40,791 bases of DNA from Candidatus Moranbacteria bacterium RIFCSPLOWO2_12_FULL_48_12 (GCA_001784735.1 MFSB01000008.1:1-40791), one strand, 5' to 3'. Numbered from the stretch's first letter, positions 8,763 to 37,785 are shown. Made by a program: numbers and translations. The notes: generated by a model not told the origin, from the sequence alone.

Positions 8763-9316
8763 TAAATAAGAGTTAATTAACGTTTCGGGAGGCTGAAAAC
8801 TTCATCTCGTGGTACATACAAGCCAAGAAAGGAGCTTTTATTGCAACGTCGTTTAGTTTAATCTCAATTAGGGTCTAATTCCCCGCCGCTTGCGGCGAGT
8901 ATCAAAGACAAATTTGTCAAAGATACCTCGCGGCTTGCCGCGAGGAGTATTCATTGCATAAAACAGCACTTCTCTGGCTTCATAGAAAGAAAATTAAAAA
9001 AATCTAGCCTCCCATAAATACCATTAAACCGTAAATAACACCATCATTGATACTTCTTCCAGTTCAAACTGATGTATTCTATTCTAGTATTTTGCCAGCC
9101 TCGACGGCTAGGCGGGCAAAAAACTAGAATGCTTGCAAATGAGACATTGTTTTAGAATGTGGTTCTTGTCTTTTACTTGCATTCTAATTCTCACGGCTGT
9201 TAGTTTCAGAGCGCATTATATTATTTTTCAAATATACTGTCTAAAAATTCAAAGACCCGGGGAGAGAAGATTCATCTCCGCGGGCCCCTCCAAGTTTTGC
9301 TTTTTCTTACAATCCC

Positions 9317-20819: not shown

Positions 20820-21386
20820 ATGAAAATGATTCCTTCCGTCACAAATCGTGAACTTGATGAAACTTTTATTTATCAGGGACTATCATGGCAACCAAGAATT
20901 ACATCAAGGGGAGATCTGGGTATCACTGGACCATTTTGCAAGAGATGTAACGTAAGTTTAGCAGGTGGTGTGGTTAAATGTTGGAACTGTAATGCCGATT
21001 ACTCAAAAATTTTAGATAGCGACTTAGTGGAACTTCGAAGTAAAGCTCATAAGATATATGAAGCGAATGCTCGTTCAAAATACCCAGTTATAAACTTTGA
21101 CATCCCACCAACATCACTTAGTCATAGTACAACTGAGGACGAGAATTTTTTTGTGGGATATAAATTTGGGCAAGAAAAGGGTAGAAAACAATTACACATT
21201 TGGGTTGGTGAGAGGAAAAAAGATCAAAGTAATAAGGATAAAGTTCAATTAGTTATTGATGTTGATAAAGAAGAGTTCAGACATGACCAAACTAATAAAT
21301 TTCCTGGTGAAATAATTGCTAACGCCAAGATTGTTTTCAAAAAATCCAGTACAGATATAAACTATGAAAAAATAGTTGAAGGATGA
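20820..21386 (+). CDS. Hypothetical zinc-ribbon protein (188 aa), AT-rich
   Basis: ATG 20820 lies after the dnaK terminator. The longer track ORF from 20526 overlaps dnaK in another frame. Motif CKRC-x11-CWNC. Visibly more AT-rich than the flanking genes. Confidence 0.6.
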   Translation: MKMIPSVTNRELDETFIYQGLSWQPRITSRGDLGITGPFCKRCNVSLAGGVVKCWNCNADYSKILDSDLVELRSKAHKIYEANARSKYPVINFDIPPTSLSHSTTEDENFFVGYKFGQEKGRKQLHIWVGERKKDQSNKDKVQLVIDVDKEEFRHDQTNKFPGEIIANAKIVFKKSSTDINYEKIVEG

Positions 21387-21398
21387 AATATTTTATCT

Positions 21399-21437
21399 AA
21401 AAATGAAGCGGCCCTGGCAGAATGTTTCCCGCCAGGG
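21399..21437. repeat. 39-nt hairpin repeat AAAAATG(A/C)AGCGG(C/T)CCTGGCAGAATGTTTCCCGCCAGGG, copy 1
   Basis: Second copy at 22994..23032. Hairpin CC(C/T)TGGC..GCCAGGG. Lies between convergent ORFs, so it is terminator-like. Confidence 0.7.
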
Positions 21438-21497
21438 CTTTGTTCATTTGTAGACCTCCTATAGAAAAAACGCGGTTAAATTTGCTTGTGGTCGGCG

Positions 21498-22232: not shown

Positions 22233-22301
22233 ATGGTTTGGACGGACGAGCAGATAGCAAATCATAGGGAAGTGGTGGATGTTCTGGAGGGGATAGAGTG
22301 A
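22233..22301 (+). pseudogene. Fragment A: duplicated 5' end of the M24 peptidase gene (22 codons then stop)
   Basis: MVWTDEQIANHREVVDVLEGIE* compared with MVWTDEQIKNHKEVVDVLEGIV.. of the intact gene at 26530. About 55 of 66 nt are identical by hand alignment. Confidence 0.75.
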
Positions 22302-22871: not shown

Positions 22872-22955
22872 ATGCTTTGGACGGATGAACAGATAAAGAA
22901 TCATAAGGAGATGGCGGATGTTTTGGAGGGGATTGTCCGAGAATTTTTTTGTTAA
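22872..22955 (+). pseudogene. Fragment B: duplicated 5' end of the M24 peptidase gene (27 codons then stop), truncated at a REP hairpin
   Basis: MLWTDEQIKNHKEMADVLEGIVREFFC*. About 60 of the first 66 nt are identical to 26530... The stop is immediately followed by REP copy 1. Confidence 0.8.
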
Positions 22956-22976
22956 TTTGGAAGCCTTGCTTCCAAA
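22956..22976. repeat. REP hairpin copy 1 (TTTGGAAGC-CTT-GCTTCCAAA)
   Basis: 9-bp perfect stem with a 3-nt loop. Confidence 0.9.
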
Positions 22977-22993
22977 ATCTTCTAAATGGTTAA

Positions 22994-23032
22994 AAAAATG
23001 CAGCGGTCCTGGCAGAATGTTTCCCGCCAGGG
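22994..23032. repeat. 39-nt hairpin repeat, copy 2 (see 21399..21437)
   Basis: AAAAATGCAGCGGTCCTGGCAGAATGTTTCCCGCCAGGG. Lies downstream of the minus-strand ORF 23118..23780. Confidence 0.7.
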
Positions 23033-23117
23033 CCTGTTTCTCCTCCTTTTGTCGTTGATTGATACTATCCGAGAAAATCGTATTTCTTATAGGAAGGTCA
23101 AGTCCTCAGACACCCGA

Positions 23118-23780
23118 TCAGAGCAGCGCTGTGATGGTAGCGTCTGAAATGCACTTTTCCCATGCTTTCCGGCATGAGGGAAGCACAGTTTTCGGGATAA
23201 TGAAACGCCTGAGTCTTTTTTGCACTTCATCGGATGGCACGGAACGATTCCTGGCCAGCCACTTCGCTACCCGTTTGGGGATGGTGATCCGGGTAGTTTC
23301 GAAGTCTGGCCAGCATGGGATGCTGGTCGTCTCCTTCACGGTAACCAGAATAACGGACCACCGAGAATGCCAGATTTTTGGCGTGCCTTCCAAGTTGTAG
23401 AGAAAGCTATCCCGCTCCAAGAAAAGCTCGATTTGCCTATCGCTATCCACAAGGACTGTCCGGCTCTCCACCGTGTGTGGCGGCGTAATGCTGTCGACTT
23501 CCCGTACCATGTCACGGTAGCGCAAAGGCATCACTTTTTTGGTATATGTGAGAGAGGGCACGACGGTAAGCAAGTGCCTGAAAACATCCAGGTAGTAGAA
23601 TGCTACGGCCTTTGCGGTCGCCTCCCCGAAGTCATACTGGTTAGTTCTGGCTTCACTTCTGCGGCTATTTTTCACGGTTCGATCTCCTGTAAAAGGACGA
23701 AGCAGATCCGGGTGAACCGGCATCTGGTTACTTCGATGAAGTAACGGCTCATTATAGGTCGAGAGAGTAATAAATGTCAA
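23118..23780 (-). CDS. Hypothetical protein (about 200-220 aa)
   Basis: Longest ORF in a segment where both strands are open. The track start is TTG 23780 and the first ATG is at 23723 (MPVHPDLL..). No family recognised. Confidence 0.5.
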   Translation of the reverse strand: MTFITLSTYNEPLLHRSNQMPVHPDLLRPFTGDRTVKNSRRSEARTNQYDFGEATAKAVAFYYLDVFRHLLTVVPSLTYTKKVMPLRYRDMVREVDSITPPHTVESRTVLVDSDRQIELFLERDSFLYNLEGTPKIWHSRWSVILVTVKETTSIPCWPDFETTRITIPKRVAKWLARNRSVPSDEVQKRLRRFIIPKTVLPSCRKAWEKCISDATITALL

Positions 23781-23800
23781 CCATGAATCTGGTGATGTAA

Positions 23801-23821
23801 TTTGGAAGCCTTGCTTCTAAA
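23801..23821. repeat. REP hairpin copy 2 (one mismatch: ..GCTTCTAAA)
   Basis: TTTGGAAGCCTTGCTTCTAAA. Confidence 0.85.
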
Positions 23822-23915
23822 TTTACTTCAAGCAGGGAATTAGCCGCTCTTTGCATATCCTCTGGCATATTCTATACTTGGGGCAGGAGCTTTAAGCATT
23901 AATTTATAAAAGTCT

Positions 23916-24863
23916 ATGGGATTTTTTCAAACCGTAAAAAAGAGCGTCTATGATGTCGCTTTCTACGCCACCGCCAAGACGGAGAGTTTCTCGGTAGCGC
24001 TCAAGCAGTACACTTTGTTTATCTTGTGCGTGGCGGTCGTCATCTCGATTCCTCTGTATATAGCTTTCGGAGTGTGGCATTCTCAGGTCAAAGAAATGGG
24101 CGATATCCGCGCCAAGGTGTTGGCCGTGTATCCGGATGAGCTTGTGCTTACTTTCCAAAATGGTCAGATGGCTTCCAATGTCGAGGAGCCATACAGCATC
24201 CCGATGCCAGCGGAATTTGATGTGAAAACTCCGAAGAATCTCGTCGTTATCAATACCCGCGGATCCATCACGCTCAATGATTTCGAGCGTTACGATACCC
24301 TCGCCATCCTCGGAGGCGATGCTGTCTGGACGCACGACCCGCAAAAAGACAAAATCGAAATTCAGAAATTCGATCAATTTAGCAAAGCCTCTTTTGTCTT
24401 GAATGAGCAGAAACTCACGGAATGGGTAGATCTCGCCTTCAAAGTCGGAAGAATTGTTGTCATTATCCTGCTTATTTTCATGCCGGCGTTTATCTTCGTC
24501 TTTCTCTGGGTCGGGTATCTTGTCTATCTCCTCTTCGGAGCGTTTGTCATCTGGCTTATGGCGAAACTGCGCAAAGTTGACTGTACTTACGGCCAGTCTT
24601 ACAAGCTCGGTCTCTATCTCCTCACCCTCCCGATTCTCTATAGCGTTCTGACCACCGGTCCGCTTTCGATGTTCCATATCCCCTTCGGCTTCACCCTCAT
24701 ACTTGCCGTCCTCGCCTACGCCAATCTCGGCCCAATAAAAACAGTCAAAACAACTTCTGTTTCTCCTGCACCAAACAATATGCCCGTTTCAGCCAAAGGC
24801 TCTGAGTCAGTCGAAGGGATAAAAGTTGGAGATAGTGAATCCAATAAAGATGGGAAGTTGTAA
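23916..24863 (+). CDS. Multi-pass membrane protein, DUF1189-like
   Basis: N-terminal MGFFQTVKKSVYDVAFY and several hydrophobic helices. The family assignment is from memory of the DUF1189 N-terminal pattern and is unverified. Confidence 0.6.
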   Translation: MGFFQTVKKSVYDVAFYATAKTESFSVALKQYTLFILCVAVVISIPLYIAFGVWHSQVKEMGDIRAKVLAVYPDELVLTFQNGQMASNVEEPYSIPMPAEFDVKTPKNLVVINTRGSITLNDFERYDTLAILGGDAVWTHDPQKDKIEIQKFDQFSKASFVLNEQKLTEWVDLAFKVGRIVVIILLIFMPAFIFVFLWVGYLVYLLFGAFVIWLMAKLRKVDCTYGQSYKLGLYLLTLPILYSVLTTGPLSMFHIPFGFTLILAVLAYANLGPIKTVKTTSVSPAPNNMPVSAKGSESVEGIKVGDSESNKDGKL

Positions 24864-24894
24864 AAAATCATACTGACTGGGGTAAATAAGAGAA

Positions 24895-24915
24895 TTTGGA
24901 AGCAAGGCTTCCAAA
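24895..24915. repeat. REP hairpin copy 3 (TTTGGAAGC-AAG-GCTTCCAAA)
   Basis: Perfect copy, opposite loop orientation to copies 1, 2 and 4. Confidence 0.9.
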
Positions 24916-24951
24916 CTTTTAGATAGCAGAATGGCGTAAAGAAAGAAATAT

Positions 24952-25633
24952 ATGCCTATAAATCCAAATTATAATCTTGATAAAATAAAGTTTTCACTCG
25001 ATGAGGGAACATGGCAACGCGCCACTATACTTTATTACCAAACGAAGTGAGCGAAACGAAAGTTTACTTTCGTTTCCGAGCGCAGTGCCGGTAAAATCGG
25101 GTTGAATACCCCGCGGCTTGCCGCGGATATGAAACGAGCTTAAGCTCGTTTCAGGGTCCAGGGCTTGCCCTGGGGTAAATACCTGTTATGAGAAACACAA
25201 GGTAACAAAGTTTGAATCAGATTCGTATGGATTTTCAGCGGTTGTGTTTGGCAGCCGTGTGTATAAAGTACGTGTGTCGACGCGTCGTTTTGACGAAGGA
25301 GATTGTGAATGTTATCTCGGACAAAATGATGAATTATGCAAGCATATGGTAGCAGTCGCTATTTATGCTATACTTGGCGGAAGACCGCTATTGGAGGAAG
25401 AAAAGCAACAAAAAAATGATATATCTTTAACATGGTTCATTTATCAGAATTCACTAAGTGAGGACTGTAGTCGTCTTGCCGCTACTGTTTCCGAGCTTCC
25501 GGTAAGTTTGCAAACAGCCGAGCTTTTGGTTGATCTTCTCTTAAGGATGGATAAAAAACTTTGTACAGGCGGCGTTGATGATTCAGATGGAGTTGTTGGC
25601 GGTTGTATGGAGGAAATCGTGGGGGTTACTTGA
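24952..25633 (+). pseudogene. SWIM zinc-finger protein gene interrupted by a hairpin array
   Basis: A 32-codon N-terminal piece (24952..25050, ..EGTWQRATILYYQTK*) is followed by about 125-145 nt of hairpins. The rest lies in another frame (open from about 25133; track ORF 25244..25633) and carries the SWIM motif CECYLGQNDELCKH. Confidence 0.6.
25053..25173. repeat. Array of four consecutive hairpins
   Basis: GAAACGAAAGT-TT-ACTTTCGTTTC (25053..25076); CCGCGG-CTTG-CCGCGG (25111..25126); the palindrome GAAACGAGCTTAAGCTCGTTTC (25131..25152); CCAGGG-CTTG-CCCTGG (25158..25173). Confidence 0.85.
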
Positions 25634-25751
25634 AGAGTTTTCCAAAGCTGATTCGAGGTGTATTGTTGTATTTTGTAAGCTTTTTGAAATAGAAACCTGT
25701 TTTGGATGGGAAAAACCGCTTGTTGCAATTGCCAAGCGTGCAAGAACATGA

Positions 25752-25772
25752 TTTGGAAGCCTTGCTTCCAAA
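25752..25772. repeat. REP hairpin copy 4 (CTT loop)
   Basis: TTTGGAAGCCTTGCTTCCAAA, 37 nt upstream of the transposase ORF. Confidence 0.9.
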
Positions 25773-25808
25773 TGGTAGAATAGTAGAGAAGTATTAAGTA
25801 TAAAAATC

Positions 25809-26483
25809 GTGTCAATAAGAAAAATTAATTTCGCAAGTGGCGAATTTTATCATATTTACAATAGGGGAACCGACAAGCGGAACATCTTTTCCGATTTGGC
25901 AGATCAAGAGCGCTTTATTCAGAGTATGAAAGAATTCAATGCGCTCAATCCGATTGGCAGTATTTATGAACATTGCCGTTCTCAATTTGGAAGCAAGGCT
26001 TCCAAAAATGGTAAAAAGGACAAAAGGCTTGTAAATATAGTGGCTTATTGCCTGAATCCAAATCACTACCATTTTATATTGGAACAGGTTTCAGAAAAAG
26101 GCATAGAGAAATTTATGCAAAGGCTTGGTACGGGATATAGCAAATACTTCAATAACAAACACGAGAGATCTGGTGGACTATTTGAGGGAAAATTTCAAGC
26201 AGTACATATCGACTCAAACGAATATCTTCTGCATGCGAGTGTTTATGTCAATCTCAACGACCGTGTTCATGGATTTGGAAGCAAGGCTTCCAAATCTTTA
26301 GGGAAGATGTTGATTAAGAGCAGATCCAGTTGGGATGAGTATATGGGAAATGCTAAAGAAGGGTTTTGTACAAAAGACAATATTCTTGGTCAATTTAAAA
26401 ATGTTAAAGAATACAAAACTTACGCGGGAAATGTGCTGGTAGGTATACATGAAAGAAAATTTTTAGCACAAGAGAAATTTTAA
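25809..26483 (+). CDS. IS200/IS605-type Y1 (HUH) transposase, REP-associated tyrosine transposase (RAYT)-like
   Basis: FYHIYNRGTDKRNIF, HUH motif NPNHYHFIL, LFEGKF, and Tyr motif ASVYVNLN. Flanked by REP hairpins and containing two more. Confidence 0.82.
   Translation: MSIRKINFASGEFYHIYNRGTDKRNIFSDLADQERFIQSMKEFNALNPIGSIYEHCRSQFGSKASKNGKKDKRLVNIVAYCLNPNHYHFILEQVSEKGIEKFMQRLGTGYSKYFNNKHERSGGLFEGKFQAVHIDSNEYLLHASVYVNLNDRVHGFGSKASKSLGKMLIKSRSSWDEYMGNAKEGFCTKDNILGQFKNVKEYKTYAGNVLVGIHERKFLAQEKF
25986..26006. repeat. REP hairpin copy 5, in frame inside the transposase ORF (encodes FGSKASK)
   Basis: Starts exactly at codon 60 of ORF 25809..26483. Confidence 0.9.
26274..26294. repeat. REP hairpin copy 6, in frame inside the transposase ORF (encodes FGSKASK)
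   Basis: Starts exactly at codon 156, the same phase as copy 5. Confidence 0.9.
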
Positions 26484-26488
26484 AGTTA

Positions 26489-26509
26489 TTTGGAAGCAAG
26501 GCTTCCAAA
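26489..26509. repeat. REP hairpin copy 7
   Basis: Lies 5 nt after the transposase stop and 20 nt before ATG 26530 of the peptidase gene. Confidence 0.9.
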
Positions 26510-26529
26510 ATCTATTTCAATTGAAATAT

Positions 26530-27270
26530 ATGGTGTGGACGGATGAGCAGATAAAGAATCACAAGGAGGTGGTGGATGTTTTGGAGGGGATTGTCCAGGA
26601 GGTCTTTTTGTTTATATCAAAAGAGAAAATTGTCACGGAAAGAAGTATCCAGAAGTTTATTCTGAGGAAGTATTCAGAGTATGACCTCAAATCTTGTATG
26701 GGTTTGCCGATAGTGGCGTTTAATGAACACTCGGCACAGCCGCACTATGCCATTGGCAAGAAATCAAAAGTTTTGAAGCCAAATACTTTGATTCTCATCG
26801 ATATTTGGGCGCGGTTTAAGAAAAGGAACTACCCGTACGCGGATATTACCTGGATGGCCTATTATGGAAAATCATTGCCTATCAAAATACAGCGGGCATT
26901 CGATACGGTATTGAAGTCGAGGGATGCCGCCCTCAGATTTATTAAAAGTCATGCGAAGAAGGGAAAGTTACCGAAAGGACAGGCAGTCAATGAAAAAGCC
27001 AATGCTATAATATATAAAGCGGGATATGGGAAGCATATTCTCCATTCGATTGGCCATTCTATCGGATTTCGCTCGCCCCATGGTGCCGACAAGAATCTTA
27101 ATAAGAAAGGCGACGAGCCTTTGAAACTCAGTCTCGGTTACACAATCGAACCCGGCATTTACATTGCCAATGAATTCGGCATCCGCAGCGAGATCGACTT
27201 TTATGTCGATGAAACAATGAAACTGCACATCACCACCGGCCTCCAAAAGAAAATGGTTTTTATAAGGTAA
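26530..27270 (+). CDS. M24-family metallopeptidase (Xaa-Pro/methionine aminopeptidase-like pita-bread domain only)
   Basis: LILIDIWA, YADITWM, HSIGHSIG and GYTIEPGIY..GIRSEIDF match the M24 metal-ligand blocks. The start is taken at ATG 26530 (MVWTDEQ). Confidence 0.82.
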   Translation: MVWTDEQIKNHKEVVDVLEGIVQEVFLFISKEKIVTERSIQKFILRKYSEYDLKSCMGLPIVAFNEHSAQPHYAIGKKSKVLKPNTLILIDIWARFKKRNYPYADITWMAYYGKSLPIKIQRAFDTVLKSRDAALRFIKSHAKKGKLPKGQAVNEKANAIIYKAGYGKHILHSIGHSIGFRSPHGADKNLNKKGDEPLKLSLGYTIEPGIYIANEFGIRSEIDFYVDETMKLHITTGLQKKMVFIR

Positions 27271-32945: not shown

Positions 32946-33018
32946 GCCACCTTAGCTCAGCTGGTAGAGCAGTGCTTTCGTAAAGCAAAGGTCCCCAGTT
33001 CGATTCTGGGAGGTGGCT
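32946..33018 (+). tRNA. tRNA-Thr (anticodon CGU)
   Basis: Cloverleaf folded by hand. Acceptor GCCACCU/AGGUGGC, D arm GCUC-AGCUGGUA-GAGC, and anticodon loop UUCGUAA. T arm CCCAG-UUCGAUU-CUGGG; no encoded CCA. Confidence 0.88.
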
Positions 33019-37714: not shown

Positions 37715-37785
37715 TGGGGAATGGCCAAGTGGTAAGGCAATGGGTTCTGGTCCCATGATCGGGGGTTCGAATCCCTCTTCCCCAG
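37715..37785 (+). tRNA. tRNA-Gln (anticodon CUG)
   Basis: Hand-folded. Acceptor UGGGGAA/UUCCCCA with U1-A72 and G73. D arm GCC-AAGUGGUAA-GGC. Anticodon arm AUGGG-UUCUGGU-CCCAU. T arm GGGGG-UUCGAAU-CCCUC. No encoded CCA. Confidence 0.9.

Follow-up and report, generated by a model that had tools for sequence, protein, structure and literature searches.

A probable REP/RAYT-type system with a minimal hairpin built into the gene of its Y1 transposase in Moranbacteria-like genomes

Introduction

How does a gene for a Y1/HUH transposase come to lie within a cluster of short hairpin repeats, and do the gene and the repeats belong to one system? We address this question for positions 22956-26509 of a 40,791-nucleotide contig from Candidatus Moranbacteria bacterium RIFCSPLOWO2_12_FULL_48_12 (MFSB01000008.1:1-40791), the whole of which is referred to here as the window. 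A first-pass annotation, made from the sequence alone, had described this region as resembling the modules formed by repetitive extragenic palindromes (REPs) and REP-associated tyrosine transposases (RAYTs). The role of such pairs is a long-standing puzzle, in that the enzymes are domesticated and both their function and the manner in which REPs spread are unresolved. We find that the locus is probably a REPtron-type system of Moranbacteria-like members of the candidate phyla radiation (CPR, or Patescibacteria), consisting of one vertically inherited RAYT-like gene and its cognate 21-23-nt perfect palindrome.

Results and Discussion

A search of the window for the pattern TTTGGAAGC-NNN-GCTTCCAAA, allowing 2 or 3 mismatches, returned exactly seven sites, which start at 22956, 23801 (one mismatch, giving a G-T pair on the plus strand), 24895, 25752, 25986, 26274 and 26489. 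These are the seven copies reported in the first-pass annotation, and none was found outside 22956-26509 in the window, even at 3 mismatches. The chance expectation for the pattern, calculated from dinucleotide-preserving shuffles, is a mean of 0.00-0.01 sites. The loop is CTT in three copies and AAG in four, so both orientations are present, as had also been reported. In most copies the stem is lengthened to 10 bp by an A at -1 and a T at +1, and the 23-nt form folds as single-stranded DNA at -8.6 kcal/mol (z = -4.9 to -5.3). None of the six frames of the 21-mer contains a stop codon. At gathering thresholds, Rfam matches in the window are limited to two tRNA genes (32946-33018 and 37715-37785), and between 22000 and 27500 there is none at E values up to 1; thus, neither the hairpin nor a structured insert in a neighboring SWIM gene, described below, belongs to a curated RNA family.

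The gene in question occupies 25809..26483 on the plus strand, begins with a GTG start codon, and encodes a protein of 224 amino acids. The assignment of this open reading frame (ORF) to the Y1/HUH transposase type proved correct, as did the coordinates and motifs originally given for it (YHIYNRG, NHYHFIL and YVNLN): a hidden Markov model (HMM) search against Pfam PF01797 (Y1_Tnp) gives 29.4 bits over residues 70-147, above the gathering cut-off of 23. The HUH motif is formed by N85-H86-Y87-H88 and the catalytic tyrosine is Y146, and residues H86, H88 and Y146 are invariant across 21 homologues. The sole NCBIfam match is to REP_Tyr_transpos (NF047646), at 30.1 bits against an equivalog cut-off of 80. 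When an AlphaFold2 (AF2) model of the protein was compared with the PDB, the top match (E 2.6e-4, TM 0.42/0.55) was 4ER8, in which the REP-associated transposase of E. coli is bound to a REP hairpin, and weaker matches followed to the TnpA structures of IS608, IS200 and ISDra2. The link to 4ER8 comes from the fold search only, since sequence searches of the PDB were empty: the single Y1 protein found no homologue (one insignificant match, E 0.2), and a profile of 21 sequences found no match. By motif comparison, the set NHYH / FE-FQ / YVNLN(D) is nearest to published subclass 2.1, and some homologues are already annotated by JGI as 'REP element-mobilizing transposase RayT'.

Two of the seven hairpins lie in frame within the Y1 ORF. 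The first-pass annotation was right to associate the cluster with the gene and had overlooked these two copies, which are the most distinctive feature of the locus. Internal hairpin 1 (25986..26006, plus strand) encodes residues 60-66, between helix A and the HUH strand, and internal hairpin 2 (26274..26294, plus strand) encodes residues 156-162, just past the helix that carries the catalytic tyrosine. Both lie in the same codon register, and each reads FGSKASK. The low-confidence segments of the AF2 model, 51-69 and 148-164, coincide with these peptides, which are thus predicted to sit in disordered surface loops outside the HUH-Tyr core.

Both internal sites are conserved in 20 aligned homologues of 59-86% identity. 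The peptides at the two sites match within each homologue and vary between homologues, as in the pairs QLGNPTSK/QLGNPTSK, QLGSSASK/QLGSSASK and FGGSTSK/FGGSTSK. Recognizable anchor motifs were present in 118 of the top 120 homologues; in 104 of these 118 the two sites share at least five of the seven residues of the heptapeptide, and in 47 the two peptides are identical. When site 1 of one protein was compared with site 2 of another as a control, at least five of seven residues were shared in 0.7% of cases. Single central differences between twin peptides correspond to inverted loops, namely K/L (AAG/CTT), S/R (TCG/CGA), P/R (CCG/CGG) and E/L (GAG/CTC).

Comparison with sister genomes, which the first-pass annotation had proposed, revealed that a four-site layout is shared by 13 loci and that hairpin and gene co-vary by lineage. 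The 13 distinct loci compared at the DNA level are the window, L030-L033, L042-L044, L048, L002, L070, L073 and L078. A hairpin is found about 30-80 nt 5' of the start codon in all 13 (25752..25772 in the window, loop CTT; this copy and the others outside the gene are given without strand). Internal site 1, at about nt 171-218 of the Y1 gene, is likewise present in 13 of 13, although imperfect in L048, while internal site 2, at about nt 451-491, and the site after the stop codon are each present in 12. The post-stop copy of the window (26489..26509) lies 6 nt 3' of the Y1 stop codon and 12 nt 5' of the start of an M24 peptidase gene.

Each lineage has one palindrome, identical at all sites of a locus, and at least eight stem variants occur among the 13 loci. 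These variants include (T/C)TTGGAAGC, CTTAGAAGC, TTTGGAGGT / CTTGGAGGT, TTTGGAGGC and CTTAGCGGT, as well as a form in L030 with a 6-bp stem and a 9-nt center. Extra copies near the gene, which are found in the window, L031, L033 and L042, carry the variant of the local gene. In four genomes whose Y1 genes are about 81% identical in DNA, conservation of the stems is 100% at each of the four sites, and no part of the gene is richer in indels than the linkers beside the hairpins. Loop orientation varies both among sites and among genomes. Two-sided changes are seen at five of nine stem pairs and one-sided changes at none, a count that is biased because the variants had been found by searching for perfect stems.

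The palindrome reaches 17-19 bp in some relatives. At internal site 2 of L073 and L070 it takes in the conserved flanking codons for VHQL / KLVK, and at the upstream site of L078 it takes in the -10 element described below (TTGTATCA...TGATACAA).

The hairpin also occurs away from the Y1 gene, and three such extra copies lie in the window. The exact 21-mer was found at 29 places in 12 CPR-type species-representative metagenome-assembled genomes (MAGs), most of them labelled Moranbacteria or Patescibacteria and three bearing Bdellovibrionales or Saccharibacteria record labels; only 2 of the 29 places adjoin a gene of the Y1 clade. The 23-mer was found on 30 metagenome contigs with G+C contents of 0.28-0.51, including other contigs from the Rifle samples of the window genome. 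Most copies in the relatives are extragenic: among 53 unique copies, only 14 lie deep inside ORFs of at least 150 amino acids, compared with 69% of random positions. The flanks of 37 unique copies carry A at -1 in 29 and T at +1 in 30 and are otherwise not conserved. An assembly or adapter artefact was considered and rejected, since the hairpins recur in independent NCBI, JGI, ENA and Logan assemblies with lineage-specific variants.

In-frame copies of the hairpin are found in genes for DNA polymerase I, QueA, Dus (at two different sites), RNase HII and XseA, and some of the copies in housekeeping genes are exact insertions of seven codons. The clearest footprint is in QueA: of 120 Moranbacteria-type orthologues, 23 have an insertion at one site, which is empty in the other 97, and in the closest relatives of the query the insertion is exactly seven codons. 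The inserted peptides (among them FGSKASK, LGSSASK, LGSRTSK, LGGRTSK and LGSPTSK) come from the same repertoire as those of the Y1 genes; they are encoded by perfect palindromes, and the palindrome at this one orthologous site varies from one genome to another. Either the lineage-current variant is renewed in place at this site or the site is hit repeatedly, and either alternative would imply a directed process.

Several further observations concern these dispersed copies. QueA ranges from 345 to 447 amino acids in Moranbacteria-type genomes (orthologues P0270-P0389), with two hairpin sites and many other insertion blocks (SGLTAE..., PRTGLEGTL, LPARIATRIVAGG and PLSEGRAGRGG), which may be further families of in-frame repeats. 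The Dus orthologues of L013 (5562) and L019 (446) carry the hairpin at different sites, and a hairpin-free orthologue has equal length at each site and a partly similar sequence (GAAATTGAAAAATGGCTTCCAATT) at one of them. From these sequences, the hairpin-free stretch may be a decayed copy, which is a simpler explanation than the length-neutral replacement first suggested by the comparison of L013 with L019. Finally, L025 (LSNK01000006.1, 107-1591) and L065 contain three 21-mers and adjacent half-sites (...ttattgcttccaaat) within 1.5 kb on a short contig without a Y1 gene, unlike the mostly single dispersed copies.

Could the palindromes be maintained and spread in the absence of the Y1 enzyme? 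Each copy might be kept perfect by arm-to-arm correction, and the copies might be homogenized by short-tract gene conversion, in which case the Y1 gene would be one that tolerates old insertions in two loops. We consider this unlikely, although it would fit with stem changes that are always two-sided, with loop flips that are frequent at every site, and with the different perfect palindromes seen at orthologous QueA sites. It leaves unexplained, however, why four sites have been retained across a large clade with invariant stems beside hypervariable linkers, why the nearest solved relative of the protein is a hairpin-binding nuclease, and where new 21-nt insertions in genes come from.

The upstream copy is integrated into what appears to be the promoter of the Y1 gene. 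Its 3' end abuts a -10 element, often of the extended form (TGnTAnAAT), in at least 9 of the 13 loci. In the window, a promoter scan placed the extended -10 element TGGTAGAAT at 25773..25781 on the plus strand, directly 3' of the hairpin. The same element is found in L042 and L044, and the corresponding elements are TGATATAAT in L030 and L031, TGGTATAAT in L033, TGATACAAT in L078 and TGCTAGAGT in L048. Given that TTGGAA in the left hairpin arm (25753-25758) lies 17 nt 5' of the -10 element, the hairpin forms the -35 element and spacer of the predicted promoter. Such a hairpin-embedded promoter suggests that the Y1 gene may be autoregulated.

A promoter-overlapping copy is also what one might cite in favor of ordinary regulatory or terminator hairpins, or operators of another factor, whose link to the Y1 gene is incidental. 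Some copies are flagged by a lax terminator scan, and five of the seven do lie at gene boundaries, almost every one of which in the island carries a hairpin according to the first-pass annotation; those at 25986 and 26274, inside the Y1 ORF, do not. The terminator reading is ruled out by the in-frame copies and by the polarity of the flanking tracts, since on both strands the stem is preceded by a T-run and followed by an A-run, the reverse of what an intrinsic terminator has. Incidental hairpins of any kind are made quite improbable by the recurrence of the two in-frame copies in Y1 genes of over 100 homologues, by the other copies in QueA, PolA, Dus and RNase HII, and by the presence of the local variant at fixed sites in 13 of 13 loci of the Y1 clade examined.

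The genomic position of the Y1 gene bears on whether it is a mobile element. The gene is syntenic in the window, L042, L043 and L044/45: it lies downstream of hrcA-grpE-dnaK, and the block downstream of it in all four genomes contains genes for Cu-oxidase_4, a 2Fe-2S thioredoxin, DsbA, RF-1 and FtsE/X. The Y1 proteins of the three relatives are 77-80% identical to that of the window, and the genes immediately around the Y1 gene vary among the four. There is one copy of the gene in the window and no tnpB nearby. The constant syntenic position downstream of dnaK indicates a domesticated gene, not an insertion sequence. Single-locus, housekeeping-like behavior of this kind has been used to define RAYTs (PMC5581495).

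It is accordingly very improbable that the locus is an autonomous insertion sequence of the IS200/IS605 type with the hairpins as its left and right ends, even though a Y1_Tnp protein is flanked by hairpins, the TnpA structures of IS608, IS200 and ISDra2 are matched too (more weakly), and another small hairpin element is demonstrably mobile in the same population. Such an element would have had to stay at one syntenic position in four genomes whose protein sequences have diverged by 15-25%, with one copy in the window and no tnpB. Moreover, the same perfect palindrome stands at the ends and at the internal sites, in place of distinct imperfect end hairpins; the protein has YVNLN and not the Y---Q of TnpA-IS200 (PMC6006769); and its sole NCBIfam match is a REP-associated family.

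We therefore favor a REPtron-type system, for which a mechanism may be proposed. By analogy with E. coli TnpAREP and IS608 TnpA, the Y1 protein would bind the hairpin on single-stranded DNA and would cleave and rejoin beside it, so spreading and homogenizing the copies. Expression of the Y1 gene would be subject to feedback from protein bound to the promoter copy, and perhaps also to the internal ones, and the gene-linked hairpins would serve as master copies that keep enzyme and substrate matched.

Several observations weigh against a REPtron-type system. The association between protein and hairpin is positional and evolutionary in nature. The REP_Tyr_transpos score is far under the equivalog cut-off, the AF2 model is moderately confident only (pLDDT 64.6), and the class-2 Y motif Y---NP is half matched, YVNLND having the N and lacking the P. 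In the wider family, which comprises about 908 clusters (50% identity) at E below 1e-30, the twin-peptide signature is seen in 14 of the 84 scorable proteins among the top 150 cluster representatives. The copy number is low, with at most seven exact copies per MAG, a lower bound given exact matching and incomplete MAGs. Copies are mostly single and do not form REPIN doublets, and no 5' GT[AG]G foot was found at the 37 unique copies. Palindromy and two-sided stem changes could also stem from arm-to-arm correction, without selection or an enzyme.

A more specific and more tentative possibility is that the Y1 gene is the master template of a genome-wide family of seven-codon palindromes whose sequences are renewed in place. 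Occupied sites, such as the four in the gene and housekeeping sites like the two in QueA, would then persist for long periods, and the lineage-current variant would repeatedly replace the sequence at each site by enzyme-catalyzed, hairpin-directed replacement or homing. The promoter-embedded copy would provide autoregulation, and the whole would be a REP system of persistent sites and sequence turnover, not one of classical transposition to new sites.

Comparison with known systems

The locus most resembles the REPtrons, such as E. coli YafM/TnpAREP (4ER8) and the RAYT-REPIN systems of Pseudomonas. It shares with them a Y1/HUH protein of closest fold, cognate palindromes that flank the gene, a lineage-specific palindrome, a single vertically inherited locus and, to judge from its relatives, a probable dispersal of copies mainly between genes. 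It differs from them in its hairpin, a perfect one of 21-23 nt that has a loop of 3 nt and lacks the GT[AG]G foot, and in having mostly single copies, few per genome, where REPtrons have REPIN doublets and tens to hundreds of copies. The protein also differs, having 224 amino acids with a C-terminal extension, YVNLN(D) instead of Y---NP, and an NCBIfam score below the equivalog cut-off. The original description of a REP/RAYT-like module is supported in its core by the HMMs, the fold, the 13 loci and the co-variation of hairpin and gene; the locus departs from the canonical type in lacking the GTAG foot, in its low copy number and in its equivalog score.

The palindromic elements of Rickettsia are longer than the hairpin described here, and we know of no cognate enzyme for them. 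Like intragenic REPs and like the copies reported here, they are in-frame palindromes in genes that stay functional; the copies here differ in being exactly seven codons long, stop-free in six frames, and linked to a Y1 gene. Intragenic REPs have been described in replication and repair genes, for example that for DNA polymerase I (Di Nocera et al. 2013, PMC3733652). IS200/IS605 elements and their miniature derivatives share the Y1 HUH chemistry on single-stranded hairpins, but they are mobile and multi-copy, with distinct left- and right-end hairpins, Y---Q and often tnpB, none of which was seen for the Y1 gene here.

In-frame REPs inside tnpAREP genes are known for TnpAY1 subclass 2.4 (Quentin et al. 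2018, PMC6006769), which corresponds to Bertels group 4 and is found in Cyanobacteria and Bacteroidetes. As here, the cognate REPs of that subclass lie in frame in predicted peripheral loops (PMC6006769). However, they are inserted between HuH and Y, whereas the two insertions here lie before HuH and after Y, at fixed sites in the same codon register that are conserved across a large clade. The motifs of subclass 2.4 are NH[IFV]H / WQ / YIxNNP, as opposed to NHYH / FE-FQ / YVNLN, and its REPs are long and GTAG-footed or 'double-foot', unlike the present hairpin. The closest motifs, in a comparison with the published table only, are those of TnpAY1 subclass 2.1 / TIRYT (Bertels group 1; NH[YF]H, FQ, Y[IV]HLNP), which also has a similar length (median 238 amino acids) and a C-terminal extension. 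Subclass 2.1 is reported to lack REP-like sequences nearby and to have terminal inverted repeats, whereas hairpins flank and interrupt the gene here.

Given these earlier reports (PMC6006769, PMC3733652), in-frame repeats are not new in themselves, even inside the enzyme's own gene. What is distinct here is the host group, a minimal perfect hairpin of 21 nt that lacks a GTAG foot, the small number of copies, and the fixed four-site layout with its promoter copy and two internal sites kept across a large clade. The first-pass annotation had supposed that REP/RAYT systems are described mainly from proteobacteria; this is not so, since published surveys report them from many phyla, Cyanobacteria and Bacteroidetes among them (PMC6006769, PMC5581495). 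Literature searches returned no description of RAYT/REP systems, or of IS200-type palindromic repeats, from Patescibacteria or the candidate phyla radiation, to which the system described here would extend REP/RAYT biology.

The clade would offer a stripped-down REP/RAYT case, with a 21-nt perfect hairpin, few copies per genome of roughly 1 Mb, and four copies built into the enzyme's own gene and promoter. It would also supply matched enzyme-hairpin pairs for specificity swaps, with the stems GGAAGC, GGAGGT, GGAGGC, TTAGAAGC and TTAGCGGT. In addition, seven-codon palindromes repeatedly give rise to length differences among essential CPR proteins, which matters for the annotation and modelling of those proteins.

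Neighboring genes and other repeats

The region from dnaK to the M24 peptidase gene is a variable island of lower G+C content. Upstream of the Y1 gene it contains a divergent gene for a 201-residue protein on the minus strand (23118-23723), a DUF1189 gene (23916-24863), and a SWIM zinc-finger pseudogene (24952-25745) with a structured insert at about 25048-25186 and a frameshift near 25626. The three extra hairpins lie directly 3' of the stop codon of a peptidase gene fragment (22956..22976), between the divergent gene and the DUF1189 gene (23801..23821, the copy with one mismatch), and between the DUF1189 gene and the SWIM pseudogene (24895..24915). The full-length M24 peptidase gene follows the Y1 gene at 26521..27270 on the plus strand (Pfam PF00557). 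Six other ORFs of the island had no match in NCBIfam, and four of these had none in Pfam.

Two 5' fragments of the M24 gene, both on the plus strand, are also found in the island. Fragment A (22233..22301, 22 codons) is about 85% identical to 26524-26591, and fragment B (22872..22955, 27 codons) is about 85% identical to 26520-26615. The fragments bracket a GrpB gene, which suggests that insertions occurred repeatedly at the peptidase gene's 5' end. Along the plus strand, fragment A is followed by GrpB, fragment B, a hairpin, the remainder of the island with the RAYT gene in it, another hairpin, and the full M24 gene; this order would fit successive insertions in the M24 5' end, each bringing a replacement 5' end.

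Hairpins had been said to lie exactly at the break points of truncated genes. This is the case for fragment B, whose stop codon directly precedes 22956, and not for fragment A, at the break of which there is no hairpin. In L042, moreover, an intact 256-residue SWIM orthologue is flanked by hairpins exactly as in the window, with its upstream copy at 9125, which indicates that the SWIM-RAYT block was inherited and not assembled from cassettes. The proposal that hairpins drove local rearrangement is therefore no more than a conjecture, as a hairpin adjoins only one of the two peptidase fragments and the SWIM-RAYT block was inherited together with its hairpins. An integron-like cassette array, in which the hairpins would be recombination sites, the Y1 protein the recombinase, and single genes mobile, is hardly credible: it would account for the three hairpin-bounded single-gene units upstream of the Y1 gene (22956/23801, 23801/24895 and 24895/25752) and for the varying gene content beside that gene in relatives, but the relatives have no more than one extra hairpin within 10 kb on either side, no cassette was seen in two different contexts, and mobility of the SWIM unit is ruled out by the intact orthologue at the same place, with both hairpins, beside the Y1 gene of L042.

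The insert in the SWIM gene is about 139 nt long and contains the hairpins CCGCGG-cttg-CCGCGG and CCAGGG-cttg-CCCTGG. Several assembly breaks fall inside it (25031, 25109, 25113 and 25174), and a 79-nt copy that is 93.7% identical is present on another contig of the same sample (L054). The insert is distantly similar to a 93-nt miniature element at 8862-8954, near the ends of which lie two G+C-rich hairpins whose loops are CTTG. An identical 93-nt element is found at 1617-1709 of L038, inside the M24 peptidase gene, where it corresponds to an insertion after position 26724 of the window. Each of the two 93-nt copies is immediately preceded by TTTAA and followed by TG, and the target is not duplicated, which is the insertion style of miniature elements derived from IS200/IS605.

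In strain variants the M24 peptidase gene is hit by other elements, in L038 and apparently also in L041. At 1457-1991, L041 leaves the window sequence at 26629, inside the M24 gene, and continues into unrelated sequence with a minus-strand ORF of 201 amino acids, which could be an insertion or an assembly chimera. The idea that this divergent end is a relative of the island's 201-residue gene was discarded, as a comparison found no relation between them. Lastly, a 47-nt repeat with the hairpin GCCCTGGC...GCCAGGGC occurs at 21399-21445 and 22994-23040, the two copies being 89% identical. The first copy is flagged by a terminator scan (21411-21438, minus strand) and follows an ORF that ends at 21386, and the second lies just past the hairpin at 22956.

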